The notes beneath the pieces are model-generated. The model worked only from the letters and a program-made list of their open reading frames with translations. It had not been told where the DNA came from and searched no databases. 64,000 nucleotides of DNA from Isurus oxyrinchus (taxonomy: Eukaryota). The stretch covers positions 248,001 to 312,000 of the forward strand of contig JANJGN010000105.1 in assembly GCA_026770705.1 (NCBI GenBank), in the 5' to 3' direction. A program made the position numbers and the translations under genes. Shown here piece after piece: positions 26,243 to 54,829 of the stretch; positions within the stretch are counted from its first letter, which is position 1, and each line of letters opens with the position of its first letter.

Positions 26243-27680
26243 TCACTCTGCAGTGACGGGGGAATCCCCGACCCCCCGCATTATTGTGTCCAGCCTCCTG
26301 CTGAGCCACCATCTTGCATTTCTGCAGCAGCTGTTTATTATTGATCCATCATAAAGAGCGAGTCAATGTGTGATCGTTGCGATTTCTCATTTAAATTCTC
26401 AACCTGGTGACAAGAATCATTCATTGGCATCGATCGACCTCAAAACTTCTAGGTTGAACTAGATAGGCCACTATATGCCTTACAGAGCGGTAGAGTAAGG
26501 TCTTTCTTCATTCTCTCAAACGTAACATCCCTGACAAAACTGGCATCGCCATCCCTTGATAATGGTAAAGTGTGGACCACAATTCTGCAGGCCAGACTGG
26601 GCAAGGACTGCAGATTTCCATTCTAAAGTAAATTTGTGGGCTTGATATTCCTTTTCGAAAATCTATGATAGTCTAATGTGGGTCAGCATTATTCAAATTA
26701 GGTTTATATCCCAGAATTTCTCAACCGATTTTAAATTCGATCAGTGCCATAGTTGGATTTGAACCCGTGTCCCCTGCGCATTAGCCTCTCTGGATTACTA
26801 ATCTACTGACATGACCAGAGAAAGAGGCCAGTAAATTGGTATAGGTCCCGTTCCCTCTGATCCATTTCTTGTGAGTATATTCTTGGGAAAGACGAGGTGA
26901 CACCATGATGTGAACTGTGAGTGTCACCTAAATAGACGTAATGGAAGAAGGATTCCACAAGCACTCACCCACTTTTCATCTTCTGAAATGCTGCCAATTT
27001 CCACTGTCATTGCTCTCCAAGGGACCAGAAATGACCCACATGAGCTGTAGCTTTCCAGGATTCATATCTTCAATGGGAAGAGAAAAAGCGCAGATTACTT
27101 TATCTTGCTTCCCAGAGGAATGCAAGGGCTATAAATTCATAAGTCGTGGAGAGAGCGGAGGGGCGGGGCCGTGTGAGGATGATCCATGTTCATTTCACTA
27201 TATACAATTTCAGAGACTTTATTCACACAACTCTGTTTTCAAGTGCCTCAAACAGTTCATCATAATGTGCAGGGACCGGGCAATCACACACTGTAGTGTA
27301 AGCTGCTGATTTGTGGGGGCAGTATGGAAAAGAGAATTCTTACCCAGCTTGTCACACAGAGGGCATGCTCGTACCTTGGCCCAGCTGTTCAATTAGGCCA
27401 GCGGTCTCTCGTTACCTAAACACAGGATACCATTCTCCACACTTAGCACTTCCATTTCAGTCTGTCACACTCGCTGTTTGACCATTGGAATGTATGGATC
27501 TGGGTAAAGTGGTGTTCGAGCGGGGATGCTCGACTGTGCATGTCCATTACACACCAACGTGAGTTTAGCTGTTACCAAGTGAAGCACAGGAGAATATGGC
27601 TGTGAATGCAGCTGGTGAGGGGCTCTGTGTCTCATTGGCCTGATCTGGCTGTTTTCATTCTGACTGGAGTCCAATTTCTA
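26243..27680 (-). pseudogene. Coiled-coil/CxxC/BEN-like gene relic, copy 1 (3' exons only)
   Basis: Exon ..QTEMEVLSVENGILCLGNERPLA*LNSWAKVRACPLCDKL+G|GTAAG (27344); acceptor TATAG|27128; LVFPKNILTRNGSEGTG; last exon CCAG|26403 with GSIINSCCRNARWWLSRRL..* (26243). Confidence 0.5.
26500..26820 (-). mobile_element. tRNA-derived SINE (paralogous copy at ~39005-39310)
   Basis: ggatttgaacccgtgtcccc..gcattagcc..tggattacta = reverse complement of a B-box-bearing SINE head, with a CR1-like tail. Confidence 0.65.
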
Positions 27681-28623
27681 GCCCAGGATGCAACATGCAG
27701 GCTGGCTCAGCACAGGCTCAAGTGTTGCATTACTAGCGGTCTCAACATGTGGAGGAGGTTTCAAACTGCAGTAGCCCTGTGCCCCATCTCCCTAAAGATC
27801 ACATTCCAAAAAAAAAGCGGAGAATTCTCATAATATTGCTGCCCTTACATTCTGAAAGCTCAGATTAAAGGGTCATTCATTACCCAGAAGATCCGTAAAT
27901 AAATCAGGATAGTAGTTTTCAGCCATTTCCTCCCCCACCTCACTTCATTTTGTTTACAGAACAAGACAGCAAAGAGAGAGAGAGGGCGGAGTGAGAGACA
28001 GGCCGCAGTGAGACACGGTCGGTCAGACAAAGTATCTGTTCCAGAAAACATTGTAACGTCAAGTTTTACCGAGAAGATTCATTTCGAGAATTAAAAGATG
28101 CAGTCTCATCTCTTACTGATATTTTACCAGAGAAAAAGTTTATATTAATCTCACACTCAAGGGCAGTGCCTGCGAGTGTTCCAACGTATCATATTTAACC
28201 CACTGTTCCTTTTTGTAATGTTTGCAGCTTAAGGGCTCAGGGTCACTGGGTATTGCTCCCTGTAACCAAGTGTCTCACTTCGATTAAATGAATCTAGGAG
28301 TCCCCCTGTCAAATATTAACTATTGCATGGTCCCAAAAAAGTCATTTACTCCTTCGCTCCTCCCATATTTCTGCAGGTTTGCTTTATTAAGATGGACTCG
28401 GGAACAGCAAATCCCTGCAGGGAATAATCCCAAATTAGGGTCTTTAAAGACACAAGGCCCGACTTTTCAATGAACTCTGACCTTTCCCCTATCTGCAGTA
28501 TTTTTTTGCTCAAAAACTGATCAAAGTGAATTGCAACAAAAATATAGATTTTAGTTGCTGATTTATTGCAGAAATGCATGCATGAGGTATTTGGACCCAC
28601 CCCGAACGCAGCTTGTTCGTGAG

Positions 28624-29245
28624 TCAGAGGCTGACAGAGACAGAATCAATCCCACACTCACATATAGTCCCATTGGCTGATATTTACAGAATCAATCCAA
28701 CACTGACAGATAGTACCAGAGACTGATATTTACAGAATCAATCTGACACTCACAAATAGTGCCAGAGACTGATATTCAGCGAATCAACCTCACAATCACA
28801 GATAGTGCCAGAGACTGATATGCACCGAATCAAACCCACAATCACAGATAATGCCAGAGATATTTATCGAATCAATCCCACAATCAAAGGAAGAACCAGA
28901 GACTGATATTTACAGAATCAATCTCACACTCACAAATAGTGCCAGAGGCTGATATTCACCGAATCAAATCCACACTTACAGAGAGTACCAGAGACTGTTA
29001 TTTATAGAATCAATCCCACAATCACAGATAGTACCAGAGACGATATTTACAGAATTAATCTCACACTCACAAATAATGCCAGAGCCTGATACTCACCGAA
29101 TCAACACCACAAATAATGATAGTGCCAAGGACTGATATTTACCGAATCAATTCCACAACCACAGATAGTAACCGAGACTGTTATTTATAGAATCAATTCC
29201 ACAATCACAGTTCGTACGAGGAACTGTCATTTTTAGAATCAATCC
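28624..29245. repeat. 46-bp minisatellite, about 13 units
   Basis: Unit cagagactgatatttacagaatcaatcccacactcacagatagtac; agaatcaat recurs at 28642, 28688, 28734 and onward. Confidence 0.95.
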
Positions 29246-30348
29246 ATATTTACATGAATGGGAAAACATTGCAGGGTTGTGGCAAGTGGCAATGGAAGAA
29301 TTGTCTCTTCAGAGGGCTAGCACAGATTGGACAGCCAGAATACTCTCTTTCTCTGTTGTACCAATCCCATTATTTTGATGGAAAATACTGGAAGAGCTGA
29401 ATAGCTCTGGCAATTTGGGAGTTTCGAAAGCGGGTCTGTTCGTTAAACCATCTATCAACCGGATATGTAAATCCCCACTTCCTGTCTCCACAGCTGCTGC
29501 TGACCCTGCTGAGTGTTTCCAGCACCTTTTGTTATTATTTCGGATTCCCAGGGTGAGCAATATCTCACTTTTTGAACAATAAAACACGTCTTGCGCAGGC
29601 ATCCATATTCAAATAAGAAATTGTTGGCAGCAGAAAGAAAATATTCAGATCATTGGTGAAATTTACTAAATCCGAATAATTCTATCTAGTTTTCTGGGGG
29701 GTGGTGGCACTGATGAGTTGGAGTGTTGGATGTGGTGCTCAGCTCAAATATGTCGATTAATCTCTGATTTGGATAAAGTCTTACCCAGAGTAGCATTCAC
29801 AGCGCAAGTACCAAGGCCAGTTCCCTGCATCTGACCCCCAAGTCTCTGACACTGAGCTCAGGGTAGGAGACATTGACAGCGAGTCCAGGATAACGTAAAT
29901 CAGCCAATCAGAAATTGGAACTTATGGGGAAATTTCAGCGCGCTCGCACGTGCCAGGGCGTCCGCAGTCTTTGGTATGCACAACAGCAACTTAAATTCAC
30001 TGCTGAGTACGCTGGAAGTCTTGGCGACTTAGCTGTTATTGAACTAGCGCTTCTCATTGCAGTAATTGCCATGCAAGGGACATAAGGCCAACGCACCGCT
30101 GTTGGAACATGTTAATGACTGTTTCCTATGAACCCAGAGTGGCAAATGTTCCGCCATAGCAAGAAACAATTATAAACCCTGTGGAAAGCCAGCAGGCATA
30201 AAACGCACGATGCAAAGCGGGACAATGTTTTTTGATACATTTAAAAATAAACACGTTGTCTTTGCAGCAGAAAGGCCAACATTCCAAACTGGAACATTGG
30301 CTACAATTGAACTATAGTCAGAACTGGAATAGTTGGTTTCATTTTGCA

Positions 30349-30985
30349 TTATTTTATCATGATGAGGATTATAGTCCAAGGACTTTTCAGTATCTTCTTC
30401 AGCTCTTCCCTGAATTTTGTTTGCGCAGCTGCATAAATAATCGTATTTCTGCAGGAACTCAAATACATGAGCATTTGTCCAGTTTGAGTGGCGATGTATG
30501 CAGGAGCTGGATAATCAGGTCGTACATGAATGGCCATACCACTGACTAACGACCAAACGACTGCTGCCAGCCACAATAATATCAACGTGCCCGATACAGT
30601 CAACAGTAAAATAATCGATTCCTGGATCACTCTTTTTCTTGCTGCTGTGACCCCGCAGCTCCTTACGGGCTCGACTGGCAAGTAAAATCCGTCTGATTGT
30701 CAAGCAACTGAACCATAATATCAAAGTGAAAGGAATCCATGTCACTAAAATAATTTGTTGCCAAATTAATATTACACCAAAAGGAAATGTATAAAAATCC
30801 AGACTGGACCGGAAACCCCATTGAATATTGTCAATTGTTCGCTCAGGTTCAAATGCAAACCAATTTGGTATGTTTTGTAAAAGCGAGAGGACACAGACTG
30901 ATGTTCGAACTGTAGCTGCAGTTCTCACTGTGCAATACCTTGTCTTAAACTTGTGGCTACATATACACACAACTCTGTCATTCAT
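30349..30985 (-). pseudogene. GPR139-like GPCR pseudogene fragment (end of TM3 to C-terminus), 5'-truncated and frameshifted
   Basis: DRVVCICSHKFKTRYCTVRTAA...NIP...PFTLILWFSCLTIRRILLASRARKELRGHS..SDP, a frameshifting deletion at ~30620, then SIILLLTVSG..ILLW...LMYLSSCRNTIIYAAAQTKFREELK*. Confidence 0.9.
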
Positions 30986-31795
30986 CAGAGGGCAAACGCA
31001 AGGCAAAATAAGAGTGAGCTCCCCCCGCAATGTTGCCTTGTCGCCTGTGCAGTGGCGCTGCTGTATGACTGTTACTCAGATAAATACATCAATCACAACG
31101 GCAGTTAGCCTGTTATATGCCGCTTTCCCAACTTGCTCTAAACGCCGAATGCAATTGATTGAGGGCCGGGCGGAAATATATTTCAGTTCCCTGCCCTTGC
31201 AACTCCCCCGAATTATTGTACCGAATTTAAATTTTAGCAGGCACTGGGTAATTCCTCGTTGAAGCCCGCATCGTGAGTTTGCGCGACCTTCCTTCTAATT
31301 CGCCATGAAAAGCCATACGCTTCAATGCAACATCCTTGAGATACAGCACCATTTAGACATTGTTTTTACTTCAATGTTTGCAGTGCTTATACTCAGAATT
31401 TATCATCCTTCTGAAGGCAACTGTGAATGAGTAACTTGCACTGATCATGCGCAACATCCCCACATCCGAAATAAATGGAAAGAAGAGATTGCCTGAGATG
31501 TCAGTCTTCTGATGACGAGAACTTGTGCAGCTTGAGGTTTGCTTTCGACAGGATATTTTCAACGTTGAGAAGAAGGAGAACGTATCTGTTGCTGAACAGC
31601 ATTTTGAAGATCGTATCATTCAGCAGCTCTGGGACAAACATATCCTTAGGTCTCTCTGGAAACCTGAAGCTTTGACTCTGCAAATACGAGAATTCCAGCC
31701 TCTGCGATCAGTCATCAAGGAAGACTGCTGAATTCTCCACTCACTGCCAGTTGAATTTGAAAACCATATGATCATACCAATCAGTTGACCCCTCT

Positions 31796-31869
31796 GGGCT
31801 GTTAGCTCAGATGGTTAGAGCGTCGTGCTAATAGTACCAAGGTCGTGGGTTCGATCCCCGTACTGACCA
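31796..31869 (+). tRNA. tRNA-Ile(AAT), intact A/B boxes, stem mismatches (likely pseudogene)
   Basis: GGGCTGTTAGCTCAGATGGTTAGAGCGTCGTGCTAATAGTACCAAGGTCGTGGGTTCGATCCCCGTACTGACCA; 2 acceptor-stem and 1 anticodon-stem mismatches. Confidence 0.85.
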
Positions 31870-32964
31870 ATACAGCACTACCTGTTCTTGAACAACAGTC
31901 ACCCACGCTGCGTCCGATTATAATTCAAAAGTTATCACATCGGACGAACACTTCTACTACGACGTCGTTAATTTATAGCGTTGCCGGTTGTTTTTGGTTT
32001 TCTTTCCCACTTCTTGAGTCTGGAAAATTCCTCCATCTTTTTCTGACAAATTCGTTATTCTTTTAGTATTTCTGTGCCACAGGTCTGTTGCTAACATGAC
32101 AACAAACCTTTGCTACTGTACAGCAGCCCATTGTGTCTGCTCTAGCTCTCCATAAGAGACATCCGCTGCCTTCTCCCCCTAGCCCTTTACATTGTTCTTT
32201 TTGAGATAATAGGCTCCCTCAATTTTTAATGTTTCAATTGAACCTGCCTCCACCAATCTCAGGGAGTGCATCCCAGGCCGTAACCACTTTCAACGAGAAA
32301 AAAGTATTTTCCGTCATGTCATTTTAGATTATTTTACCAATTAGTTTCAACCTGTGCCCTTTCTATTTAGATCCTTTCGCAGATGGGAACACGTCCTCCT
32401 TATGCACACGGCCCAAACCCCTCATGATTTTCAATACCTCTATCATATCAGCTGCCAACCATCTCTTCTCCAATGAAAACAGGGCTAAATTATCCAATCT
32501 ATCTTCATAACTGAAGTTGCTCATCCCAGAAACCATTCTTGTGATTCTTCTCCGCATTCTTTCCAACATCCTTAACATCTTCACATCCTTCCTCAAGTGC
32601 AGCGCCCGGAAAAAGAGGGGATACACCAACAGAGGCTGAAATAGTGCCTCATATAAATCTCATTTGCCCTATTTCCATTACAACGCTCTTTGAGCCATGA
32701 CAAATGTTGTCTGCTGCCGTCACAGGCAATCGCTTTCGACGCAACCCCACAACCAATGGAACAGGTCTAAGCTCTGAAGTTTTTCCACATCGAGTCATGA
32801 ATGGTGATGGGTAATTAAACAACTAACTGGAAGGGGAAGCTGCGCGAATAAATGAAGGCCCGTTCACACAGCATCCTAAATGCTTGCTTAACCAAGCCTT
32901 GCTTGGTTTGAGTGCATCAACAGTCGGTGTTGCACTTGGAACCGTTAAGCTTTGTCGACCAGGG

Positions 32965-33391
32965 ACGAACATTTCACGCTTATGTCCATCCTTAAGTACC
33001 TCTTTTATGCTATTTATTGTGGGCATGTCTAGCAGGTCTTTCTGGGATGTTTTTATGTGATTAACAACTGAACAATTTTGCCGGCTATTTCTGCACTTGA
33101 AAAGTCATTGGATGGACGCCTTTCTCTGCATCAGCTGATGAAGTTGTCCATGGATTCTCAAAGTTGGTCAAAATTGTCCATATGTTTGCGGATCCTTTAG
33201 TTCTTTTGCTGTTAATCCTGACATGTTCAGCCTGTGTAGACCTTCATTCACAATTGCTAGGCGAATTTTAATGGCTTGCTTGTCTGGCTCAGCGGCACGT
33301 GAATCAAGAAACCGTAGCTCTGTTTAAACTTATTGAATTGGGGTTCTAGGTCATCTGCATCCTAATTCAATCTGGGGAATTTTGTAGACAT
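32965..33391 (-). mobile_element. Gypsy-type gag relic (duplicate of 20710-21194)
   Basis: MSTKFPRLN*DADDLEPQFNKFKQ...SIKEVLKDGHKREM. Confidence 0.7.
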
Positions 33392-34012
33392 TTTGACAAA
33401 GTCCCTTTGACCTTCCTTCTTCTGTAGTACGTGGAGTGACTGTCACTGTGGCTGCTTTTGCTGTCTTTTCCAAAGCTGTGCCAATATAATTGCAGCCTTC
33501 TCTGGCCTGATTTTTATGCGGTTTGCTTTATTGTTTTCTCTTTCTTTGACTCTCCCTCGCTCTATGTCAATCCGGTCCACACCCTGGTCAGTCCCCTTTC
33601 TTGACTGACCTAATCTGGTGCTGGTGCTGGTTCTTTTGACACCCTCTTCCGCTCACTGAACTGAAAGGCCATGCATTGGAATAAGGCAATGAGAGATATG
33701 CCTGCTTCCCTGCGCTTCATTTGCACACTATCCGACTCTGCCTTACAGCCTTGTCTGTACAGTCAGCACGCTGCTTTCTCAACGCTCTCCGATCTGCGAC
33801 TCTCTTTACGTCTGATCAAAACGTCAAGAATCACCTCATGCCATGTAACACAACCTACACTGTTCACCAATCGTATATGTAGTTGATCTTATTACCAGGC
33901 TGTCTAACCATCGCTGACCACCATTTTGTGCTATTATAATAATTGATAATCGCCATTAAGATGTTGGGTAAATGCTTTGAGACATTTTGCCCCATGCAAT
34001 TGTAAGTTATCA

Positions 34013-34084
34013 GCGATGGTGGTACGATGGTGAGCAGAGCTGCTTTCCACGCAATTGATCTGGTTTCTTTTCTCAGCAATCGCT
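34013..34084 (+). pseudogene. tRNA-Gly(TCC) pseudogene
   Basis: GCGATGGTGGTACGATGGTGAGCAGAGCTGCTTTCCACGCAATTGATCTGGTTTCTTTTCTCAGCAATCGCT. Confidence 0.75.
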
Positions 34085-35179
34085 GTTTGTGCATTTTAGA
34101 TTTCTGAGTTCAAGAGCCCCAGGCAGGATTTGATCCTGAAGAGATGTAATTTTGCTCTGAAAATGCACGCGGCTGTAATTCAAGCAGTGATTTCTCATCT
34201 CCATTTATATAAGGGAGGAACGACGTCATGGAGGGATTTGAAAGTGAGGATCAGAATTTTATTATTTTAGGCATTGCGATGTCAGGAGCTAGTTTCCTAG
34301 GTCAGCAAACACGGTGGTGATTTGTGCGGATTCATATATTAGGATTAGGGACATATAAATATTTGTCCAGATGTAGAAAGCTCGAAGGCATCATAGCTGT
34401 GCCTTGTTCTGCTCACAGGCAGCAGTGAAACTAAGTCAGGATTGCACAGACCATTTCCCTTCGAGTTACTTGTGTTGCTTTCCCTTAAAGGCAGATTACA
34501 AAACCCATACACATTTTACCCTAGAATAAGCAGTATTTCAGTCTAACTTATCAGGATATGATCTATTTTACTTCAGATAAAACATAAATACGCAAGGAAT
34601 TGAAGACAGCATTGAAAGTTTCAAAGGAAACATTGAGATAGGAAAGAGATGAAATATTGACATAATTAATCTCAAAAAACGGAAAAATGCGGGAGAAACT
34701 CAGCTGCTCTGACAGTTTCGGTTAGAGGGTCAATTATTTAAACCTTCTATAGAACTGAAATATTGATCTACCCTTCCTCTGTCGGAGCTGATTGCAGCAC
34801 CTTCTGTCCTTATTTCAGATTCCCAGCGTGAGCAGCCTGTTGCCTTTTGAATAATCGAACAATCTCTGTGCGGGAATCAATATTCAAATAAAGAAATTGG
34901 AAGCATCAGCGGGAAACGATTCAGAGAATTAATGAATTTTACTGAATCCGAGTAAACCTATCCCAGCTCCACACTAAATTTCAGGGAAAACCTGCATTAT
35001 CAGCAATGAGGAACAAGCCTGAGTTACATTATCAATGGAAGATAAGTGGAGGTTGTAAATCATTTTATTTCAATTACACCTGCGTGTTCTTTCCATGCAA
35101 GATATCTGACCGAAACAGATCAAGTACAGCTCCGATTGTGGGGTTTCTGATTTGAGAAGCATAAAAAAAATCAACAAAC

Positions 35180-35251
35180 TGCGATGTGGGGAAATTGAAC
35201 CAGAGTTAGTTGCTTGGAAAGAAAGGTCACTTACCACTATCCTGCCATCGC
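35180..35251 (-). pseudogene. tRNA-Gly(TCC) pseudogene
   Basis: Reverse complement GCGATGGCAGGATAGTGGTAAGTGACCTTTCTTTCCAAGCAACTAACTCTGGTTCAATTTCCCCACATCGCA. Confidence 0.65.
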
Positions 35252-37854
35252 TGAATTCGGTAAAATCACACCAGCAAACTGTCCCAAGGACTTAAGAAAA
35301 AAGTTATCATTAACAATAAAGCTGACGCTCAGCCATGCAAGGAGAAATTGGGTCAGGTGACAAAAGCTTTCACAAAGAGGTAGATTTTAAAGAGCTTCCT
35401 ATGAATTAGAGAAGTGGAGGGGTTTAGAGAGGGAGTCCAGAATTTTATACCAGGTCAGCTGAGTGCACGGTTGTCAATGCTGTAGTGATTAAAACCCGGA
35501 ATGTACAAGCTGGCAGAAAAGCAGAAATCTGCACGTTGTCTTGGGCTGGAGGAGGTTACAGAGAAAATGAGGGGGAAGTCATGGGGAGATTTAAAAGGAA
35601 GGATGAGGGTTTTAAAATTGAGGCAATTCCAGGCCAGGAGCCAGTGTCGGTCAACAATGACTGTGCTGATTGGTGAACTGGACTTGGTTCAGGTGAAGTA
35701 CCAGGAAGCAGAATTTTCGATGAGCACAGTTATCTGTGGGGTGGAACATGTGATGCTGGCTAGGGGGACACTGGAAGAGTCAAGTCTAGAGTGAACAAAG
35801 ATCTGGAAGAGGGTTTCAGCAGCTGGTTAGCTGAGGCACGGTCAGATTTGACCGATGTTTAGGCTGTGCAAGTACAATGTGTTCAACTGATAACGTTCTC
35901 TCAGTCTGTCTAATGTCAATCAGTTTTATCAGGGATAATGGGGGTAAAATGGATCCAGCTTCAGGCATTATTTTTCAATATTAAGGATGTAACTGTATCT
36001 ATCTCTGGATAATGTTGTCAGTGCGGGAGTTTTCACATTTCACTGTGATCAGAAGCTGAACAAAGTATCCCAGACTGAGAGAAAAGACTGAGACACTTTA
36101 AAGCTGACAATTGCCCTTCAAGTGGCCCAGTTGGGATCATTTCCTGCAGGATTTTTGCTGTCCATGAACCATTAACATCAATAATTCCTGGCACTGGGTT
36201 CACTGTGAGGGATGAAGAGTCAGTGAGCAGAGTGGAGTGTCACAGTAGTTCCGTTCGTGACTCTCCCCATCCCGGAAGTTTAGTGAGGATCGGTCTCTCT
36301 GGGAATGTCCCAAATTCCGCCTGATTACCATCCTTCAACCCTGAGACAACTGACAGCTGTCAGTTACTCCAGTATCGGGATCCCGGGGAGTTCATTGTGG
36401 TTCCCTGTTTAAACAACGCAATAACAAACAAGGTTCATAGAAAATATCATAACTCAGATTCAGAAGTAGATGAGGACATGGGGGCAATGTGCGCAGTCGA
36501 CCTTCTGTTTCAAGTTCCTTAACGATATGGAAAACTCAATGATATTTGTTGCATTGTTGCTGTTTGGTCGTGTGGCCTACTAAATAATGCTTTCTACTTC
36601 CATATGTCGTGCAAGGTTATCAGAAGTTTTTTTATGGAATCATGCAATTTGTCTTATGATCGCTTCACGCAGATAAATTGCTGTGTACAGATTGTCTAGC
36701 ACACCTTGTGTGTAGAATTTTTTTCTAATTCCCGTGGTAAACACTCTGGGTTTAGTTCTTTGACGGTGGCACTGGTTCCTAGATTCCCAGTCAGCGGAAA
36801 TAGTTTTGGGCTGATCTTACCTGTTCAAAGTTACAATAAATGTAACTAATCCCTCCTTCTATCATCAGGAATGACCTCGGGAAAGGGAAAATCAGTTGGT
36901 TAAGTGCTGGGACTGAGTTGTGGCTTGGTGTCAGGGAGTGAAGAGGATGAGGAAGGAGCTTAAGAGACAAAGAGAGTTACAGAGGAAGAAAGCTGAAAGA
37001 TTGGCGAGGAGGAAGAGAGAAGAATATGAATGGCGTTCATCATTTTTCAAATTTTATTCCATGAAACATCAAAAGAGAAAATAACCTCTGTGCCAAGGAG
37101 CTGCTGATGGTGCAGAGACCAGAAAATATAACTGGAATTAAGAGAATAATCGTGTTCACTGAGGGAGAGGCAATGGGATTAGAAAATAAAAGTTACGAGG
37201 GGGCCGGAAATGAAAGGCAGGATCCAGAAAGCTGCTGTCTGAACGCAAAGTAAATAAAGGGAACAAATACACTTAACAAATAAACAAAATGGTGGCAGAG
37301 GTTGTAATGTAAGTTATTCTGTCATGTTACAGTCACTGTTTACAAGATGCGCATTTACTCTCAAATTATTAATGAATTCTGCCGAATTAGTCATTACTAA
37401 ATCGAGTGCAGCCGGTTCATCTAGTTTTTAATATATGGTATTTTAGCAAGATTTCCTGGTTTGAAGCTACCAATTCACTGATTTCACTGAAATTTCGATT
37501 CAGCCCAGTTTAAATGAAAAGCCAGCATGGGTGCCGGGACACATACGGGACGTGGGCTGACTATTGATGTGAAGGGTCGTTCCTCTCAAGGAACAGTATT
37601 ATTCCAGGACTCTGAAATCAACCACAGTTCCTGAATCTCTCCCGTCACTGGCTCCCAATCCTGTCGATGGTGCTATCTCATGAACTCCAAGAAGGTAACG
37701 CATTCGCTCATTAAAATCACAAGCATGACTCTTTTACTGAAACATTTGGTCTCAGGCAGAGAGCTTAGTTCACCACCAACACCTCCTGGGAATTACATGC
37801 AATGCATTCACTTGCTTAATAAATGCCTGGTTACTGGTTGATATATGCACACAC

Positions 37855-38080
37855 CCTTGTCAGCCTCAATGGCCTTCAAGAGTAAAGGCTTCCTCTCATC
37901 TGGTTTAGAAGATGCGCCCCTGCAGTTTGCGTTCAGAAGGACATCACTAGTGAAGACTGCATGCACCAGGCGGTTTATAACCAGGATTCTCTTTTCTAAA
38001 TATTTCAGAGTCTGCAATTTTTCAGGTGCTATAAAAAATATTTGACGATGATGCAGTTCCACCTTCTCTTGCCCGCAGTT
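37855..38080 (-). CDS. Open internal exon encoding the N-terminal two-thirds of a BEN-like domain (functional status unknown)
   Basis: TTTCAG|NCGQEKVELHHRQIFFIAPEKLQTLKYLEKRILVINRLVHAVFTSDVLLNANCRGASSKPDERKPLLLKAIEADK+G|GTGTGT; 226 nt, no stop; resembles the BEN pattern 'L..+F+.+.L.....G....KP.L...+.AIK'. Confidence 0.55.
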
Positions 38081-38169
38081 CTGAAAGCTAGGGAATTAAT
38101 TTGAGACCCTGATAGTCCGATGGCTGCAAGTGGGTGTTGCTGCTACACCACGATGGGATGTGAAAACGT

Positions 38170-38600
38170 TTGAGGACTCTGGGTCTATACTCAATGGAGT
38201 TTAGAAGAATAAGGGGTGGATTTGATTGGAACTTACAGGATACTCACAAACCTGGATAGGGTGGACGTGGGGAAGATGTTTGCATTAGCGGGAGAGACTA
38301 GGAACCGATGGCACATCCTCAGAGTAAAGGGAAGACCTTTTTGAACAGAGTTGAGGGGAAACTTCGTTAGCCAGAGAGTGCTGAATCCATTGCCACAGAA
38401 GGCTATGGAGGCCAGGTCGTTGAATGTATTTAAGACTGAGATAGATAGGTTCTTGATTGGTAAGGTGATCAAAGGTTACTTGGAGAAGGGGGGGAAATGA
38501 GGTTGAGAAACTTATCAGCGATGATTGAATGGTGGAGCAGGCTCGATGAGCCGAATGGCCTAATTTCTGCTCGTATGTCTTATGGTCGTATGGTCTTATG
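38170..38600 (+). mobile_element. Relatively young CR1 LINE 3' end
   Basis: LRTLGLYSMEFRRIRG.LI.TYRIL..LDRVDVGKMF; 3' tail ctcgtatgtcttatggtcgtatggtcttatg. Confidence 0.9.
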
Positions 38601-38849
38601 AAAATAGACAATATGCTTTCATTTCATTTTCAATTGTAATTGTGTCATGCCTCCTTTCCCACTCCCATTCTTTAATCCTGCCTCCAGGCGGTATTCTTTA
38701 TGAAAAAATGGATTCTCAAGGAACTATGTAATTTCGGCATGCATTGGTGGTTGATTGGCAGTTGCCCCCTGAGGTCTGCCATAATTCTGGTAAGAACTGC
38801 TGGTCTTTATGCAAAAGATTTAAAAAATTGTTTCAATGATGGACATCGT

Positions 38850-41800
38850 ATCATCGTAAAGAACGAGTCAAAGCTTGATCGCTGTGATTTCTCACTTAAA
38901 TTCCCAGCGTGGTGACAAAAAACACTCATTAGCATTGATCAACCTCAAAGCTGCAAGGCTCAACTAGGCAGGCCACTATATGCCTTAGAGTGCGGTAGAG
39001 CAAGGTTTTTCTTCATTCTCTCCAATGTAACGTCCCTGACAAGGTGGGCATCCTCATCCCTTGAGAATGGTTAAGAGGCAACCACATTTCTGCAGGCAAG
39101 ACTGGGTAAGGGCAGCAGATTTCCATCCCTAAAGGACATTTATGAATCTGATTTTTTTACATCAACCAATGATAGTCTAATGTGAGTCAACATTATTTAA
39201 ATCAGATTTATATCCCAGAATTTCTCAACTGATTTGAAATTCGATCAGCTGCCATAGTTGGATTTGAACCTGTGTCCCCTGAGTATTAACCTCCCTGGAT
39301 TACATGACCAATAAAAAAGGCCTGTCAATTGAGGTAAGCCCCATTCTCTCTAATCCATTGCCTGTGAGCAGATTCTTGGGAAATTCGAGGGGGAGAACAT
39401 GATGTGAACTCTCAGCATGACCTAAGTTCACATAATGGAGAGATAGTTCCACAAGCACTCACACACTTTTCATCTTCAGACCTGCTGTCAACTGCCATTG
39501 TCCATGCCCTCCAAGGGACCAAAAACGTCCCACATGAGCTTTCAAGGTTTCATAGCTTCAATGGAAAGAGGAAACTCGCAGATACTTTATCTTGCTCCCC
39601 AGAGGAATCCAAGGGCTATAAATTCAGAAGCCGTTGGGGGGACGCAGGGGCGGGGGTTGCATGGGGATTATCCACGTGCATTTCATTACATTCAATGGCA
39701 GAATCTCTATCCGCACAACTCTGTTTTCAGGTGCCTCAAACTATTCATCATAATGTGCAGGGACCCGGCAATCACACACTGTAGAGGTAGCAGCTGATCA
39801 GCTTAGTGCAGCATGGAACAGACAATTATTTCCCAGGTTTGTGACACAGAATACATGCTCGTACGTGGGCATAGCTGTTCAACTGAGTGCACAGCCTATC
39901 GTACTCTGCACACAGGATACCATTCTTCTGTCTCACAGCTTTCCGTTCAGCCTGTTGCACTCGGTAGCAGAACTGTAGTATGCATGGAGGTGGATAAAGT
40001 GGTATTGGATCTGCAATGCTGGACAACGCATGTGCATTACCCACCCATGTAAATTCAGCTGTTACCAAAGGAAGGTCAGCAGAATGTGGCTGTGAATGCA
40101 GCTGGTGAGGGACTTTGTGTCTCATTGGCCTGATGTGGCTATTTTGTTTCTGACTGTGGGCTAAACGTTGACTCTCAGCCTCCTGCTGCCTTTCCTCCTT
40201 CCCTCTGGCTAGCTCACTCGGCTCCTTTCCACTGTCACTCTACAGAGTGTCCGTTTTCAACAATGCTGAGCACTGCTCGGTGCCACAGTTGGAGGTTGAC
40301 AGGTTCCTGGTGGTGGATGATTCCTCCTCGTACCCCACCTCCAGCCTGGCCATTGTGCCTGCAAAGAGCAGTCAGCTAGTCCCCAACCTATGCCCAGGTG
40401 AGGGAAACTGTTTTCGCTTTTTCTGTGGTGAGCAATCGCCATTGCCATGGAGTCAAGCGGCTGGAGGATGACACTGCCCTTGGTCTTCACTTTTTTCACC
40501 TTCTGTGTGCTCGCTCCTTCTGCACGGTCAGCAACAGCGTCCAGCTGCAGATCAACAGTGTGCTGTGCTCCTTCATTAACTCTGCAAATGTAATATTTGA
40601 ATGTCTCTGAAATCAGTCAATTCACAATAAATAGGATTGAATAAAAGTGTTCTTTGTTTATTGCAGCTAATATATCTGCCTCTGTAACAGTGCAATGATC
40701 ATTGCTTGTGCTGCGCTCTGCAGACAAGAACATAAGCCATTTACGTGAGTTCACTATTACACGCGGACTAGTTCATCCTGTGAGCAGAGATAGCTTGTAC
40801 CAAACAGATAGCCTGGAAGTCCACCGGCGGCAAAGCGCACAGGAAGCAGCTGGCCACCAAGGCAGCCCGGAAATGCGCCCCCTCCACTGGCGGAGTGAAG
40901 AAACCTCATCGCTGCAGGTGTGTTTTCAGACGTGCTCCGAGAAATCAGCCAATGACACAATTCCACCCCGTTGCTTATCCGCAAACTGTCCTTCCAGCAC
41001 CTGGTGAGGGAAATTGCCCAGTGCTTCGAAACTATCCTGAGGATCAGTCTGCGGTAATTGGAACATTGCAGGAAGCCAGAGTGGCCGACTTGGGTGGCCT
41101 CTTTGAGGATACCAACCTGTGTGCCACCCATGCCAAAAGAGTGACCGTAATGCCCAGAGACACCCAGCTGGCACGACGGCTCCTGGGGTAGTGTGCCTAA
41201 ACTCTTTGCTTCATTACATTTCCTCCAGACTATTTTGAAGTGACGTTTAAATATTTTCTGAAACATTATTGGACTGTTGGTTTGGCTTCTTGTGGAGGCT
41301 GGGCCTTTATTTTGTATTTTTGTTAGTTTGAGTATTGAGCGTGAATCAGTGTGGAAGCAGCGAAACATTTTGTAAACAGTCCTTCCGAACTCTTGGCTCA
41401 GGTTGCAAAATGAACATTAGTATGTTAAAAAAAAAATGAATTGGTCGAGTCTGACCTATACATGCACATCTAACAGGAAGTATTTCAGAAACGATTGTGC
41501 AGAGTGATTTTTTGAACAGTTTTCTGGTTACTCTTACACTCTATGTTGTTTGCCATGACCCCAGGCCTATTCAATAACCTAGATTTTCACTGTCAAAAGC
41601 GCTGATCTTCACTGCGGCCTTCTCTATGTTACAGTAGTAGAAAATAAAGGAGAAATCTTACCACTTATTCTCAAAATTTCGCCAAGAAACTCCCTCCCCC
41701 CTTCTATTTCACAGGGCCCGTCCCCCCTCCCTCCCTATCCTACTTGTCGCTCGCGGCAGACAGCGGTTCAATCCTGGTCAGCAGCTCCACGTTCCAGAAA

Positions 41801-41880
41801 ACCAGCCATAACTTTCGAGTCGTTACAGTGTCCATATGGTCGATAGGGATGGTAATAAGACTGGACAAACCCTAGTAGGA
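38850..41880 (-). pseudogene. Coiled-coil/CxxC/BEN-like gene relic, copy 2 (exon 1 ends 41662; exon 2 40581-~39833; exon 3 starts 39615)
   Basis: ..REFLGEILRIS+G|GTAAG (41661); TTGCAG|AG-LMKE (phase 1 matches). Frame 40353-39826 has a single stop over 176 codons and ends NGILCAEYDRLCTQLNSYAHVRACILCHK. Confidence 0.55.
40790..41200 (+). pseudogene. Intronless histone H3.3-type pseudogene
   Basis: 411 nt; (ATA)[40 protein letters not shown]...[11 protein letters not shown]...[29 protein letters not shown]31 and I89-G90 are H3.3-diagnostic; start codon lost, frameshifts, premature stop. Confidence 0.95.
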
Positions 41881-45820: not shown

Positions 45821-46629
45821 TCTGTGATTCTCTGAGTATAATAAGGAAAGAAAAGATGTGTCCAGATGAGGTTGTGAATGGCAGCACAGCAACCGCCCGA
45901 ATGTAACATGGACAATAAAGATAAAAACGTGACAAACCAAACAGGCAAGAAGAAAAACAATACACGCTGGAAACAACATAAAGGCAGATGCGTGGATCTA
46001 AATTAGTTGAACTCAATTTTGAGTCCAGAAGGCTGCAGTTGGAAGATGAGGTGTTCTCCTTCGAAGTTTGCTGTTGTTGACGCCATTTAGTCCCTAGCTC
46101 ACGTTCAGTGACGTTGTGTCTGATTGGAGAAGAGCTGCATATGCTCGCCTTTGCCTCATATTCCCTCATACCCTCTATTAAAACTCTAGGACTCTTAGAT
46201 TGAAAATATAACAATCGATCAAGCATGAGTTTCTGCATACAGAGGGAGATCTGAGGTTTAAGCACACTTTCCGTGTAGAATTGTTTCACAATTTCCATTC
46301 TGGCTTTAGATTTTGACTGGCCCTTAGTCCCAGATTCCCAGGAAACGGAAATACATTCAGGCACTGATCTAATGTTGGCATCCAGAATTCCTGGATCAAA
46401 TCAGTACATGCATCACGGGGGGATTTCGTTCCAGGGAAAGTCAGCGTCTTCCAGGGGCTGAGCTGTGATTTACTGTCCGGAATTGAGGAACATGAGGAGG
46501 GAGTTCAAGAAGCAAACGATGATGCACAACAAGAAAGCTGAAAGATTGGCGATGAGCGAGAGCGAGGAATAAGAATGGCGATTAGGATTTTTTTCCAAAA
46601 TGCCTTCAGACAGAAAAGGAAAGCTGTAG

Positions 46630-47060
46630 AGAAACTGGAAATTGAAAGAAAAATAAACAGAACATTCTGGAAATATTCAGCAGCTCATAGAGCATGTATG
46701 TAGACAAAAAGTTAACTGTTTAGGTCGATGGCTTCTCATCAAACTGGAAGAAAGATGTGAATATAACAGTGTTTAAACCAGTGGTGTGCGGGAGTAGGTG
46801 GGATGTACATAAGAGAATGTCAATGAGGATGGAGGGCAGGGGGAATGGTTTCATGGTTACAAAAAATATGTAATGGCTGTAGGAAAGAAAGCAAGACAAT
46901 GTGGCTCCATATAAGGTTGTGAATGGACACTTAACAACAGTCCGAATGTAACATGAAAGAATAAAGAGAGAAACTTGACCAAACGATGTTGAAGCAAGTG
47001 CTCTGATCTAAAATTGTTGAACTCAGTGTTCAGTCCAGAAGGCTCTATCCCACCCAATTG
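46630..47060 (-). mobile_element. Penelope-like 3' end
   Basis: ORF 46857-47057 begins IEPSGLNTEFNNFRS (GIY-YIG tail 'P.GLN'); degenerate hammerhead core at ~46710-46742. Confidence 0.65.
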
Positions 47061-48287
47061 ATTGACCAGGGGCAGTTCCTCGAGCTTTGCTCTTGTTGAG
47101 ATCCGTTATTTGCTGGAACGTGTTCTGTTATTCTAAGATCCTGGTTGTTCGGTGACTACCTCCATATGTTCATTTTTCACTCATATTCCTTTAACTCCTC
47201 TGTTAAGAAAACTCTTCGAAACTCTGATCTATAATAAAGCAATGGGTTAAACATTAATTACCGTAATCAGAAGCTCCAGCGTCATTTGTGTGTAGAATTA
47301 TTTTCTAATTCCCATGTTAAAATCTTTGGCTTTAATTCTTTGACTGTGACCTGGGTCCTTGATTCCCAGTCAGCGGAAGTAGTTTATCGGCCGATCTTAT
47401 CCGTTCAACGCTACAAACGAAATTGATAAATCCCTCCTGCAAACAAGAGGAAGGATTTCGGTAAAGGGACAGTCAATGGGTTAATTGTAGGGACTGAGCT
47501 GTTGTTTAGTGTCGAGAATTGAAGAGAGTTAGGAGCGAGTTCATGAGACAGATTTACAGAGGAAGAAAACTGAAAGATTGGCGAGGAGGAAGAGCGAAGG
47601 ATATGAATGACGTTCAACATCTTTCAAATGTTGCTCAATGAAAGACCGAAAGAGAAATTAATCTCTGAGCCAAGGAGCTGCTGATCCGTGCAGTGACCAT
47701 AAAATCGAATTGAAATTTGTAGAATCATGGTTTTTACTGGGGGAGATGTAATGGGACAAGCAAAGAAATAAAAATGGTGAATGATTGGGAGCATAATAAA
47801 AAGCTGCTGTCCGGAAACAAAAATAGGAGCGGAAAAGTAAATCTTTTAATCCGAAAAAATGGTGGCAGGGATTAAAATGTAAGTCACACTGTCATGTTAG
47901 TGTTGCCCTTTTGAAGATGCACTTTTGCTATCAGATTATTAATGAATTCTGGCTCGTTACTCATTACTAAGTTCAGCATGGCCTGTTCCTGTCGGTTTCA
48001 TAGTGTCTTGTTTCAGCAAGCTAATCTAGATTGAAGCTACCGATTCACCGATTTTCCGGATATTCCGATTCAAGCCAGTTTAGGTGAAAACACAGTTTTT
48101 ATGCTAAAACACACCCAGGAATGTCGTCCAACTATAGACACTCATTTTCTCACACTCTCACACACGTCGGAAAACAACCGCTGTTCCTTTATTGGCACGA
48201 AATGTCAACTTTATATCAACCATTTTCCAATTCTGAAGCCGATTCCAATTTTGTTTGCTTTCTTTGTGTTAATTTGTAATAAAATGC

Positions 48288-48344
48288 CTCCCCATCGGGG
48301 AGTCGAAACCCTGCCTCCCGCCTGACAGGCGGGGTTACTGACCA
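48288..48344 (-). pseudogene. 5'-truncated tRNA-Asp(GTC) pseudogene
   Basis: Reverse complement TGGTCAGTAACCCCGCCTGTCAGGCGGGAGGCAGGGTTTCGACTCCCCGATGGGGAG. Confidence 0.8.
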
Positions 48345-50004
48345 AACAAAAATAATGCGAAGTAAAGGAACCTGGGGTTAGCTGCATACTGTAATAAATG
48401 AAATTGAAGAGGTGGTCTAATGTGGGGCTTCAGGGTGTGCCTGCTTCCTTCAGTGATCCCAGAGAGAAGGATGGCAGGATAACTTCTCTAAGTGAAGTCA
48501 CGGTGTCTGAATTCCAATCTGCAATGAGAAAGGCAGAGTTAACTTTTATAATCAATAGCGTCAAACGGACTTGAAACGTTAACTCTGCCTTTGTCTCCAC
48601 AGATGCTGTCAGTGGTGTTGAGTTTATCCAGAAGTTTTTTGTTTGTTTCAGATTTCCAGCATTCGCAATATTTTGCCTTTAGCCTGGACTTCATAATGCT
48701 GAATAATCCACAGATTGACAAAATTATTGAACAATAGAAATTGAGTTGCCCTATGGTCAGTACAGTTATATCATGAAGAATTCCTTGTGAGTGTAGAGTC
48801 TCCATTTCTCAATGAGAACATGCGGCCGACAGTGAGACCAACGCATGTAATACTCACATCAGATTTCCAGGAAAGTTGCCAATTTCTGCAATCGCCACAC
48901 TTCCGATTTTATTTATTAATTTTAATTTATTTATTTCAAGGTTTTTTTGTTTGTCAAAGATTCCCCGCCACTTACTGATCTATAATAGGCAGGTTGACTT
49001 CCTCCCCTTTTTTGAATATGGATGGAACATTTTCAATCTTCCAGTCCTCTGGCACCAATGGATGACTCTCTCTCTCTCTCTCTTTCTCACCACAGCACTA
49101 TCGCTACTTCCCCTTCTCCCAAGTATTTTCATAATTGCAGTTTGCGGTTTTATATATACTTGATTGTCTTGATAACAAACGATAATTATTCTCGTTTGGG
49201 TGAGTCAGATATATGAGAACACACTCTACAATATGAATACGTTCAATAATTACTGATTATAATCATGTAGATGAATATTGCTTACAATATTACAAATGTG
49301 ATTAATTCTGAGGTCGATATGTGTGGTGGGGGTACAGAAAACATTTGTATGGTGGGCTGTTAGTGAGCTCCAGTCCATTGTTTGTGGTAGAAACTGTTTG
49401 TTGGAATTTCAGTCTGGCTAGAATTGATTAGATGAGTAGATTACAAATGATTGATTCGATTAAGAATCCAATGTTTTGCAAGAGAGAGAAAGAGAGACAC
49501 GCTATCAAATTGGCATAAGGCCTGTTCTCTATGATCCACTGCTTGTGGGCACGTTCACGGGAAAGTCGAGGGTGAGGGCATGATGCAACCTCTCAGTGAG
49601 AACTGACTTCACATAATGGAGAGAGGGTCCTGCAAGTACTCACCAAATTTTCATCTTCATTCCTGCTGTCAGTGCCACCATTGATCTTAAAGAGAGCAAC
49701 AATGCTCCTCATGAAATGCAGCTCTCCATGATTCACAGCTTCAATGGGGAGAGGAAAATCACAGGTTACTTTCTCTGGCTACCGGAGGAATCCAAAGGCT
49801 GCAATTGCAGCAGGCATGAGATGAGGATGGATGGGGAGGTGGCGGGGATGATATACATATATTGCATGACATCCAATTGCAAAACCTGCACCAGGATTAG
49901 AGGTGGCCAATTCTAAATTCACACAACACCGGGTCAGGTGTCTCAGACAACATATGCAGGGACACAAAAACCACACACTGTGGTGTCGTGTCCTTGTCCA
50001 AAAT

Positions 50005-50685
50005 GTTCAATTTCAATAACACAGACCTCCCTGTCACTTGCCATTTTCAAACTCCACCCTGGTCCCTTGCCCACCTGTCTGTCCTTGGCTTGCTGCATTG
50101 TTGCAGCGAAGCTCAACGCAAACTGGAGCAACAGCACCTCATCTTCCGGCTAGGCACTTTGCAGCCTTCCAGACTGAATATTGAGTTCAAAAACATTAGG
50201 TCTTGAGCTTCTTCATCCATCCCGACCCCCTTTCCGTTTCTTCCCCCTCCCGTTTGTTTTTTTCAATAATTTATATAGATTTTTCTTTTCTCACCTATTT
50301 CCATTATTTTTAAATCCATACGTTTTATGCCCTTTTAATTTTATTTCACTCCATCCCCACTAGAACTATTTGTACATTGCGTGTCCTGCCATGCAGTCCT
50401 AATTAGCACATTATTTTAGATAATATCACCACCTTCAACTCCTCTTTGTTCTTTTTTCTGTGACATCTTTAGATTATCTGCTCCTATCACTGCTTGGTTG
50501 TCTCTACAACCACCACCACAACTTCTCTCCCACACCCCCACTTTAAACCAGCTTATATTTCACCCCTCTCCTATTTTTACTTAGTTCTGTTGACGGGTCA
50601 CGAGGACTTGAAACATCAACTTTGTTCTTCTCTGCCGATGCTGCCAGACCTGCTGAGTAGTTCCAGGTATTTCTGTTGTTGTACT
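50005..50685 (+). mobile_element. Penelope-like retroelement 3' portion (GIY-YIG C-terminus, 3' UTR, hammerhead-like core)
   Basis: ORF 49988-50206 DLPVTCHF..PPWSLAHLSVLGLLHCCSEAQRKLEQQHLIFRLGTLQPSRLNIEF; CTGTTGA-CGGGTC..GACTT-GAAACATC at 50587-50617. Confidence 0.9.
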
Positions 50686-51618
50686 CTAATCTCTTTTTCT
50701 CTGCACGCAGAACTCCATTCTCCTGCGTCAGCACTTCCATTTCACCCAGAATCTCTCGTAGGCCAGAGTGTGCTTGTCCACCGAAAACATCTGGGTGTAT
50801 CACCCCTGCTATTTAATGATATGGGTAAAGTGGTGTTGGACCTGTGATACTGGCCAGTCCATGTCCATTCCCCACCCATGTAGGTTCAGCTGCTGACAAG
50901 TGAAGCTCAGCCGGATGTGGCTGTGAAAGCAGCTGCTGAGGGGCTCTGTGTCTCATTGGCTTCTTGTGTGACTGTTTTCATTCTGACTGGCGGAAAAACG
51001 TTAACCCTTCTCCTCACGTTTCCTTGCCACCAACTCTCTGGATGGCTCACTTGGCACCTTTCAGCTGCCACTGTATGGACTGTCTATTTTCATCAATGCT
51101 GACCGCTGATCGGTGCCACTGCTGGAGGTTGACACAATCCTGATGGGAGGCAGTTCCACCTCTCCCTCCTCATCCTCCAGTTGCCCACTATCCCTGGACA
51201 CAGCAGCCAGCTAGCCTCCAAACTAGGCCCGTGCGAATGACAGTATTTGACTTTGTTGCCATGGTGAGCCACATCCATTGCCAAGTAGACAAGCGGTAGG
51301 AGGTTGCACACTGACCTTGGTCTTCACTTCATTCATCTACTGTGTGCTCGCTCAGCTGCACATCAACAGTGTGCTGGGCGATCTTGAGCTCTTTCCTTAA
51401 CTCTGCAAAAGTAACATTGGAATGTCTGAGAAATCAGCCAGTTCACAATGAACAGGATTAACGAGAAGGATTATTTGTTCATCACTTTTCGCAGCTTTTC
51501 TTATGTGCCTCTGTAACAAAGCAATGATCATTGCTTGTGCTGCACTCCACAGTCAAGAAGATAAACCATGCATCCGAGTTCACAATTGCTGGCGGACACG
51601 TCCATCCTTTGAGAGGAG

Positions 51619-52030
51619 ATGGCTCGTACCAAACAGGTCACCCACAAATCCACCGGCGATAATGAGACCAGGAAGCAGCTGGCTACTAAGGCAGCCAGGA
51701 AATGTGCCACCTCCACTGGCGAAGTGAAAAAAAAACCTCATCGCTACAGGCCAGTTACTGTCACGCTCCGAGAAATCCACTGATGCCAGAATTGCACAGA
51801 GTTGCTTATCCGCAAACTGTCCGTGCAGCGCCTGGTGAGGGAAATTGCCCAGGGCTTCGAAACTGACCTGAGGTTTCTGAAAGCTGCAATTGGAACTTTG
51901 CAGGAAGCCAGTGAGGCCTACTTGGTTGGCCTGTTTAAGGAGACCAACCTGTTGCATCCATGTAAAAAAAAATTATGTAACACCCAAAGACACCCAGCTG
52001 GCATGACGGATCCCGGGAGAACGTGCTTAA
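51619..52030 (+). pseudogene. Intronless histone H3.3-type pseudogene (duplicate)
   Basis: [54 protein letters not shown]...[50 protein letters not shown]; the AAIG motif marks H3.3. Confidence 0.95.
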
Positions 52031-54829
52031 ACGCTTTGCTTGATTATATTTTCTCCAGACGATTATGAAGTGACATTTAAACAATTTCTAAAGCATTATT
52101 GGACTGTAATATTGGCTTCTTTTAGAGGCTGGGTCTTTATTTTATATCTTTGTTATTGTTGAGTATGACCATGTCTTATTGTGGAAGTAGCAAAATATTT
52201 TGCAAACATTCCTTCGAACTCTTGGCTCAGTTTGAAAAATAAAGCACTTTTATCTTTAACAAATAATACAAGAAAATTGTCGAGTTTGACGTATACAAGC
52301 ACGTCCAAACGGACACGTCAAAGAAACAATTGTGAACAGTTATTTTTTTAAACAGTTTTCTGGCCATTTATACACTCTACGATGCTTGGCATGACCCGAA
52401 GCTTAGTTAATAATCTAGCTTTTCCCTTTCAAATACGCTCAACTTCAGTGTGGTCTTCCCTATGTTACAGTCAGAGAAAGTAAAGAACAAATCTTCCAAC
52501 CTAGTCTCAAAATTTTCCTTAAGTACTTCCCTCACCCCTTTTATTTGACTTCTTCCATCCCCTATTCCTCTGGATCCTTCTGCTGCCTCATCGGAGACAG
52601 CAGCTCAATCCTGGTCAGCAGCTCCGCGATGCAGAACATCAGACAGAACTTTCGGGTCACGACAGCTGGATCTGCCGGGGGTGCCGAGTGCTCGGCAGCA
52701 ATAAGGTCACTTATGTCCAGATCGCTCATAGGGAAATGAATAATAGTGGACAAAGCCAGATTTTAACTTGCTGAGGAAGTGAGAACGGTCAATGGTCAGA
52801 ATGACAGCAATGGTCAGAAAAGACTGAAAATTAGTGGCGGGAAGCTAAAAGATATGGGAATACTTTATGACAAGAATTGGAGTGACTATACCTATTGACA
52901 TGCAGGTGTTTCTAGACCATTTTCAAACGTGTGTAATTCTCAAACTTCAAGCGGGTGCAAACACTCTGTCCTCTTTAAACTAAGTTGAAGAAAACATATC
53001 TCTATATCTGGGGATGGGACTGAGAAAGACTACAAACAAATAATGCTTCATTTAAACAAGAACAGCAGATGAAGAGACTGCCACAGTTGATATAAAAACA
53101 TGAGCATCATTTTTTGGCGAAAAATCAGTGCAGATGTCTCAAGCCAGTTCCTATCTCCTCTCACCCGCCTCCCCCACTAAAAACAAATTCATACCGGTGT
53201 TGCTTCCCTCCTCCCACCCTCTAACGCCATTCTGTCCTGGCTTCCCCTACCCAGTCTCGGTGCTGGCCTGACTCCCCCCTACCCTTCCGTAATATCACAA
53301 TAATTGTTTGTATTCGCCACTCCTCCCTCTCTTGGGATCCACATCGTTCTGGCCTCGCACTTCACCCACAGCCAATTTAAAACTTTGTGGCCTCTCCCGG
53401 CTCGGGACTGAGGCTGCAATCTCTTGCATTCTCGGTCCCACTCACTGCTGATCCACATGGAGCTGTTTCAATTACCGATAACAAAGAGAGAAGGGGCACC
53501 GACCAGCACAGAATGTGGAAATGCTCCTGGGAGCAGCAGGCTCTGGGGGAGTGGCCTCTGCACCACACAAAGGGTTTTTAATGTTCACTCCTTTGTCTGG
53601 CTGGGAGGAGCAGAGGCCAATCCTATAATGCTGAATGTTCCAGGAACAGGCTGCATTTCCACTTCCTGTCCCGGAGCAGGAGGGGATTAGACGATGGTTG
53701 GAAAACAAAGAATGAGCAGGGTTATGGGGAGAAGGTAGCAGAATGACACCAGGTGAAATGTTCATGTTTTAAAATTCTGTATTAATTGTTGTTTGTTCTG
53801 CTATCGTTTTCAAACTTTACCGGGCGGGAATAACTCCCTGTTCACAACATGCTGTAAGTGACAACTGAGTCTTGTACATTTGGAGAGGTGGGGAGCAAAG
53901 TGAGTATGATACAAATGTAGGTCGTAAAATAAGGTGTGAAGGGGACGTAATGATATAGATAGGTTATGTGATTAGACAAACACCTGGCAAATGGGGTATA
54001 CAGTAGTAAAACGTGAGGTTGCCCATTTTGGCAGGATGAACAAAAAAGAGGCAGATAATCCAAACACTGAGAGATGGCAGAACCATGAGTTCAGAGGCAT
54101 CTGGTTGTCCTAGTGCATGAATTATTTTTGTTTAGTTCTGCTGCAAAACTCTCGAATACCATTGAAATTCGAATGGTCCTGAGTCTCAGGCCAAATTCTT
54201 CCTTTCTCTGAGGCCAGAATGGTTGCTTTGCAAAAGGCCTCATTCTCTAAAAAAAAAGCCTCCGTTTCGAATTAAACATTTTTTTTTATTGATGCACCGA
54301 TCGTGCTGTCTCGCCCATTCGCTGACATGTTCTCTACCTTTCTTTTGAAATCTTAAAATCAGTTCAATCTTTCCGTTTAATTCTCACTTCAAAGCTGAGT
54401 AAGGCAGCAGGGTGATCTGTGACAGGGAAATCATTTCGTTTTACGCAAGAGGGACTCAGAAATCATGCGATGAGAGCGGACTCAGAAACAGAGGAGAATT
54501 ATTCTAACCCACCAGCCCCTTTCACACTCTTTCTGACACAATGTTGAAGTCTGCACATTCACAGGACAAATTGTTCCCAGATTGACAGATCCCATGTTAG
54601 GCTTCCCCCTCCACACGGCCTGTTCTGTGGATTCTCAGGGGTTAGCTGTAGTTTCCCAGCTCTGCTCACAGTGCCTGTTCTCCAGGTTCAGGGCTGAAAC
54701 TAATCGCACCTCTGTTTGGATTATCACAGACCGAATTTTATGTTATTAAATTGTTCACAAGCAAAGATATATTTGATTAACATGAAAAACAAAATGTATG
54801 TTCTGGCCCTCCCTTAAGCTTATCCCACC

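Follow-up and report, generated by a model that had tools for sequence, protein, structure and literature searches.

Broken BEN-type gene copies in a shark receptor array as probable remains of a CACTA/EnSpm-type transposon

What are the three broken copies of a multi-exon gene that lie on the minus strand of a 64,000-nt stretch of the Isurus oxyrinchus genome (assembly GCA_026770705.1, contig JANJGN010000105.1, positions 248,001 to 312,000; "the window" hereafter)? A preliminary description, made from the letters of the stretch, joined them into a coiled-coil/CxxC/BEN-like gene and suggested an undescribed, lineage-specific host BEN family. We consider it very likely that they come instead from an old CACTA/EnSpm-type transposon, as ruined copies of its second gene, which was spliced and is predicted to have encoded a BEN-domain helper, and that they were multiplied as passengers of a G protein-coupled receptor (GPCR) array after their founder had been damaged. 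The proposed host family did not survive closer inspection: the gene sits within transposon ends, head-to-head with a transposase; the array founder was damaged; and no intact full-length paralogue was found among fetched genome loci or in protein collections (part of ∼200 candidates inspected).

Element ends, transposase remnant and selection

Searching the genome with the main BEN exon, designated exon A, returned at least 150 matches (150 of 150 scored, of 207 candidates). Eight gene-bearing copies are dispersed over seven large contigs (four from this search and four from a second one), and two more, C10b and C24b, found via a transposase remnant, bring the dispersed set to ten. The eight copies share exons and introns, mostly at ∼60 to 75% identity, and their flanks are unrelated. 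Their 3′ ends reach a sharp terminus that is common to many other loci and present in 25 of 30; at the left, 26 of 30 loci carry the inverse of this right terminus. The element ends are thus ∼22-bp inverted repeats beginning CCC, which were invisible in a repeat search of single old copies and emerged only when many copies were compared. Kolobok (TTAA) and Helitron ends were dropped as candidates after the CCC ends had been found. An exact 2-bp target duplication accompanies 6 of 17 end pairs (p 7e-4 against 0.07), and the end of exon 1 is retained in 16 of 30 right-end loci. Subterminal GATCA/TGATCA motifs are enriched ∼3- to 6-fold (4.7 GATCA per left end and 6.4 per right end, against 1.5 in both cases, in copies that are related and not independent).

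Some elements carry other DNA. Two non-autonomous copies within element ends (L211 and L215) have histone H2A-like fragments beside exon 1, the second histone insertion in the element family, and in one subfamily (L211, L219 and L222) a Myb/SANT-like Harbinger fragment directly follows the left end; both kinds of fragment were recognized by eye.

The C11 copy holds a transposase remnant between its left end and the BEN gene, on the opposite strand. The same head-to-head pairing recurs in C10b and C24b, two of nine related loci fetched, and C24b carries both inverted ends plus transposase remnant and BEN gene. From left to right, the element consists of an inverted end, the transposase remnant, the BEN gene on the strand opposite to it, and the second inverted end. 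In C11 and the nine related loci we read directly a D, a CxxC, a D-x-x-H, an H-x3-H and an E; every one of these remnants has stops or frameshifts. The remnant has 30 matches in the genome, and a metagenome scan found no relatives. Transposase_21 (PF02992) gave no genome match, with its control silent too, and no match on the decayed remnants. C(2)C and H(3-4)H motifs have been given for the DDE transposases of EnSpm and its kin (PMC12730594).

The closest animal counterparts are the TRC elements (SmTRC1 of Schistosoma mansoni and those of Aedes and Tribolium), which likewise have CCC inverted ends, spliced internal genes and many truncated copies; 2-bp duplications were reported for 7 of 14 copies there, compared to 6 of 17 pairs here (PMC1636069). 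They differ in that the portions of that description available to us mention no BEN gene (PMC1636069), whereas the shark BEN gene is separate and head-to-head with the transposase, and in that Transposase_21 went undetected in the shark remnants. Maize En/Spm also pairs a transposase with a second spliced, DNA-binding product (TnpD and TnpA), but both derive from one transcript, unlike the two divergent genes, one a BEN helper, of the shark element (PMC1636069).

Selection on the BEN exons was measured as the ratio of nonsynonymous to synonymous substitution rates (dN/dS) over 106 BEN codons, by simple counting, with a star-shaped simulation for comparison and without any codon that contained a gap or a stop. 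For the eight dispersed copies dN/dS was 0.41, lower than all 450 neutral simulations (mean 0.66 to 0.76, minimum 0.51); intron controls gave 0.60 to 0.63. While the family spread, selection on the BEN exons was purifying, and hence the gene was useful at that time. Five array copies, with 14 frameshifted codons excluded as in all array sets, gave 0.64 to 0.67; these values lie within the simulated 95% ranges (0.36 to 1.32 overall), so the array copies look neutral.

Maize TnpA binds subterminal repeats. By analogy, we lean toward a role in which the shark BEN protein would have dimerized via its heptad-like stretch, bound the GATCA-type repeats inside both ends, and assisted the transposase in bringing these ends together for cutting, much as TnpA does for TnpD.

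A BEN-type domain and its relatives

On sequence comparison, the view that the gene encodes a BEN-type domain appears to hold. A 10-row profile of the BEN exons, run against structure chains, matched the NACC1 BEN domain with an expectation value (E) of 1.3e-10, and no other chain fell below E 0.6. P0001, a spliced 142-amino acid (aa) basking-shark model, matched NACC1 BEN over its full length (E 3e-8), and a read-through of exon A, intron and last exon (exon B) gave two colinear NACC1 BEN stretches that meet at the intron (E 0.43). NACC1 BEN (PDB 8yzs and 7bv9) is thus the closest sequence match of the transposon gene. Its recognition-helix residues are given as D462, T465, N466, R468 and R469; the last four have counterparts in the CTNARR motif of the shark element, whereas D462 is replaced by Ser (PMC11472053). 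The shark gene also differs from NACC1 in being transposon-borne and dead, and no BTB/POZ domain was seen upstream of its BEN exons, where exon 1 (∼80 codons) received no profile scan.

Among 1.84 billion protein representatives the only relative was XP_078415413.1 (Cetorhinus maximus, uncharacterized LOC144691243, 142 aa). It has the same last three exons and junctions and is nearly identical to the dispersed C15 copy, but it models one truncated dispersed copy rather than the full-length gene. Homology searches for longer proteins found none, which is weak evidence by the search tool's own statement.

The C15 copy itself (L140:6787-7277; G000:C15:35.49 Mb) lies outside the window and is missing exons 1 to 3. 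We used it as the query in a search of sequencing runs whose RNA status is a guess, none being on record as RNA. Four probable RNA runs (two samples, two studies) show splicing at the predicted sites: exon A to exon B in X1 to X3, which come from one sample, and the preceding short exon (EWEW) to exon A in X4. The DNA run X5 keeps the intron. The predicted BEN junctions are thereby confirmed, being used by both the basking-shark gene model and the RNA-like contigs. The 5′ exons of X1 to X3, found 43 and 16 kb upstream, are foreign and repeat-derived, not the element's. Exon A is frameshifted in the assembly, X1 and X2, while X3 has two extra letters where the assembly is two short; one sample therefore contains both a frameshifted and an open form. 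We read these transcripts as exonization of a fossil.

In the shark genome, an intact host single-BEN gene at G000:C13:140.95 Mb, which we take to be BEND7, matched the profile at E 3.5e-6 with 26% identity, and no host parent of the element gene exceeded that identity. Comparison of this gene with the element was limited to its 226-nt exon, which has the length of exon A, the same phases (0 and 1) and the same aligned intron site inside the BEN domain. At their upstream boundaries the two exons differ by about four residues, so that the match in length is in part fortuitous. Common descent of the two genes, in either direction, is likely from these sequence features. The genome also has an intact 758-aa frame, contained in one exon, that encodes four BEN domains (L133-L136; G000:C6:151.43 Mb), presumably BEND3.

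Exon structure and decay in the window and the receptor array

Direct inspection of the window letters recovered every splice signal and peptide quoted in the preliminary description: on the minus strand, the donor at 41662, acceptors at 40581 and 51402, a second donor at 27344, AG dinucleotides at 27128, 39615 and 49798, and the peptides LVFPKNILT at 26896 and SIINSCCRNAR at 26344. The gene model built on them fared unevenly. Three boundaries are real, since distant dispersed copies retain them: the donor of exon 1 and both the acceptor and the donor of exon 2. At exon 3, by contrast, dispersed copies use a site ∼60 nt downstream of the proposed AG, which in copies 1 and 2 runs into a stop. 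Of the CxxC, array copies have the second Cys but all four dispersed copies aligned lack it, so the motif is not a family feature. Neither is LVFPKNILT..NG..G, which does not form the BEN core: the core is the separate 226-nt exon A, overlooked earlier and kept, among the window copies, only in copy 2. SIINSCCRNAR belongs to exon B, which copy 1 joins to upstream DNA via a deletion near 26345. What stands of the joined model is a spliced gene whose exon 2 is of low complexity, together with the heptad-like stretch and the BEN domain at the C terminus; the exon-3 acceptor, CxxC and LVFPK do not.

All gene features that follow are on the minus strand. Copy 3 consists of exon 1 (52500..52729, donor lost), exon 2 (50700..51402), broken and interrupted by a later insertion, and exon 3 (49644..49738, from the corrected acceptor). 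Copy 2 begins with an exon-1 remnant (41662..41840) that has its phase-1 donor and continues with exon 2 (39835..40581), of low complexity with a heptad-like end, frameshifted and without its donor; exon 3 (39463..39555, corrected acceptor) carries a 7-nt deletion. There follow the short EWEW exon near 38670, whose end (38640..38700) has lost its donor, a short interspersed element (38168-38599), exon A (37855..38080; 226 nt, phases 0 and 1) and, from 37686, the truncated start of exon B (37636..37686, acceptor lost). In copy 1 a deletion joins element-upstream DNA (27666..27943) to the interior of exon 2, of which the 3′ part (27344..27666) keeps its donor; after exon 3 (26969..27067, corrected acceptor) the copy has lost ∼830 bp present in copies elsewhere, namely the EWEW exon, exon A and the start of exon B. 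It closes with the end of exon B, including the recognition helix, and 3′ DNA of the element (26020..26345), the right inverted end being missing.

Pairwise alignment of the three copies gave 72 to 79% identity over exons, introns and flanks, far above chance. The exons (0.67 to 0.82) are not better conserved than the introns (0.76 to 0.82).

The exon A matches that are not dispersed fall at C20:79.4-81.3 Mb, at C17:88.4 Mb and on small scaffolds. A rhodopsin-family GPCR array lies mostly on the same scaffolds as these BEN fossils; it spans C20:79.4-81.3 Mb plus scaffolds C35, C47, C53, C55, C64 and others. A search for its receptors gave 5158 candidates, and many of the 150 scored have open frames of 300 to 370 aa. 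The window contains one broken rhodopsin-family gene of the array (30349..31075, minus strand), presumably GPR139-like; an attempt at naming the receptor gave no name. In all five array loci fetched, the flanking DNA matches that in the window. A GPCR match lies near the fossil in the window and in two of these five loci (C17 and C20), and in none of eight dispersed regions. Array copies lack both element ends. Upstream of them we recognized no transposase-like frame by eye, and a comparison of this upstream DNA with element-bounded loci gave only common repeats among the matches listed.

Lesions are common across the array. In all five array copies aligned, exon A has lost the same single nucleotide and the EWEW donor has no GT; the exon-B acceptor is missing in 54 of 58 distinct array sequences (nine groups at 95%); and 17 of 20 loci have a common stop in exon 2. 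The founder was therefore damaged before amplification. Unequal crossing-over in the receptor array would then, as seems probable, have copied the dead fragment along with its neighbors. The number of array copies is uncertain because near-identical scaffolds may include uncollapsed haplotypes.

Intron 1 houses processed histone H3.3 copies on the plus strand, opposite to the gene: at 51590..52273 in copy 3 and, with a poly(A) tail, at 40758..41435 in copy 2, the latter absent from L007 and L017. This insertion marks one array sub-lineage (present in C17 and C64, absent from C203, C20 and C10). Tandem arrays of 46-bp and 33-bp units occupy 28640-29245, 55512-55676 and 58093-58686 of the window, the 46-bp array recurring in each array unit. 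The only two Rfam hits, both tRNA-like, lie at 31796-31869 (plus strand) and 25489-25560 (minus strand) and were copied with the array unit.

Competing origins and significance

Several results weigh against a transposon gene that died and was carried along. Inverted ends and transposase are both absent from the window's own copies, whose link to a transposon comes from relatives only ∼62 to 73% identical to them. Eleven of the 17 end pairs are without an exact 2-bp duplication (one has 3 bp), two more pairs (L243 and C24b) also show no match, and CATG, the NACC1 motif, is depleted at the element ends. Because no Pfam transposase family matched the remnant, the element class rests on motifs and ends. 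On the BEN side, the Pfam BEN (PF10523) score of 12.9 to 13.7 bits falls short of the curated cut-off of 23.2 (E 0.07 to 0.14). Structure models were poor (predicted local distance difference test scores, pLDDT, of 48 and 58), and fold searches yielded no significant match, the first placing NACC1 third at E 0.7 from a low-confidence model. Ten array representatives gave a dN/dS of 0.50, within but low in the five-copy simulated range, and slight selection may have acted on array copies.

Might a living, tandem-expanded host family explain the window better, its three copies being pseudogenes whose sister genes are intact? In favor of it are the ∼150 matches in a single array, the existence of a gene model in basking shark, and a young subfamily that keeps exons A and B open, with AG at exon B in 4 of 58 sequences. 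Those four, however, are nested in a subfamily otherwise without the exon-B AG, and the lesions common across the array, exons kept no better than introns, and the lack of any full-length protein among the 1.84 billion representatives or in the homology searches (the latter weak evidence) all tell against it; we regard this explanation as very improbable and largely refuted. A host BEN gene captured by a transposon as a passenger, as in Pack-CACTA elements, and without a role in transposition, would account for the exon length, phases and downstream intron site that exon A has in common with the C13 host exon, as well as for the histone fragments in related elements. Purifying selection across the dispersed copies, the fixed head-to-head place beside the transposase and the absence of a host parent above 26% identity make such a passenger unlikely. 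Ancient capture followed by use by the element is compatible with the transposon-gene explanation.

The C15 copy raises the further idea of a tamed gene that makes a short functional BEN protein, as its splicing at predicted junctions in probable RNA runs, its close match to the basking-shark model and the two letters restored in X3 might suggest. We rate this as slightly less probable still than passenger capture: C15 is missing exons 1 to 3, its 5′ exons are not the element's own, X1, X2 and the assembly all have a broken frame, the RNA status of the runs is a guess, and the ∼12 of 113 residues that differ from basking shark are as expected of drift. More speculatively, the shark family may preserve the mobile source of the vertebrate NACC-/BEND7-type BEN domains, with C15 caught midway in domestication; the NACC-like sequence and the intron site common to element and host gene motivate this proposal, which we hold as doubtful, if a little less so than the passenger origin.

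In the open-access literature, as far as listings and the starts of abstracts go, no CACTA/EnSpm element turned up that was described as carrying a BEN helper gene. What is new here is the NACC-like type of the BEN domain, its tie to a transposase and element ends, and the intron site common to it and a host BEN gene. What looks like a BEN "family" in a shark genome can thus be a set of transposon fossils multiplied within receptor arrays, and a NACC-like version whose intron site recurs in a host gene makes a transposon origin of vertebrate BEN regulators testable by phylogeny.

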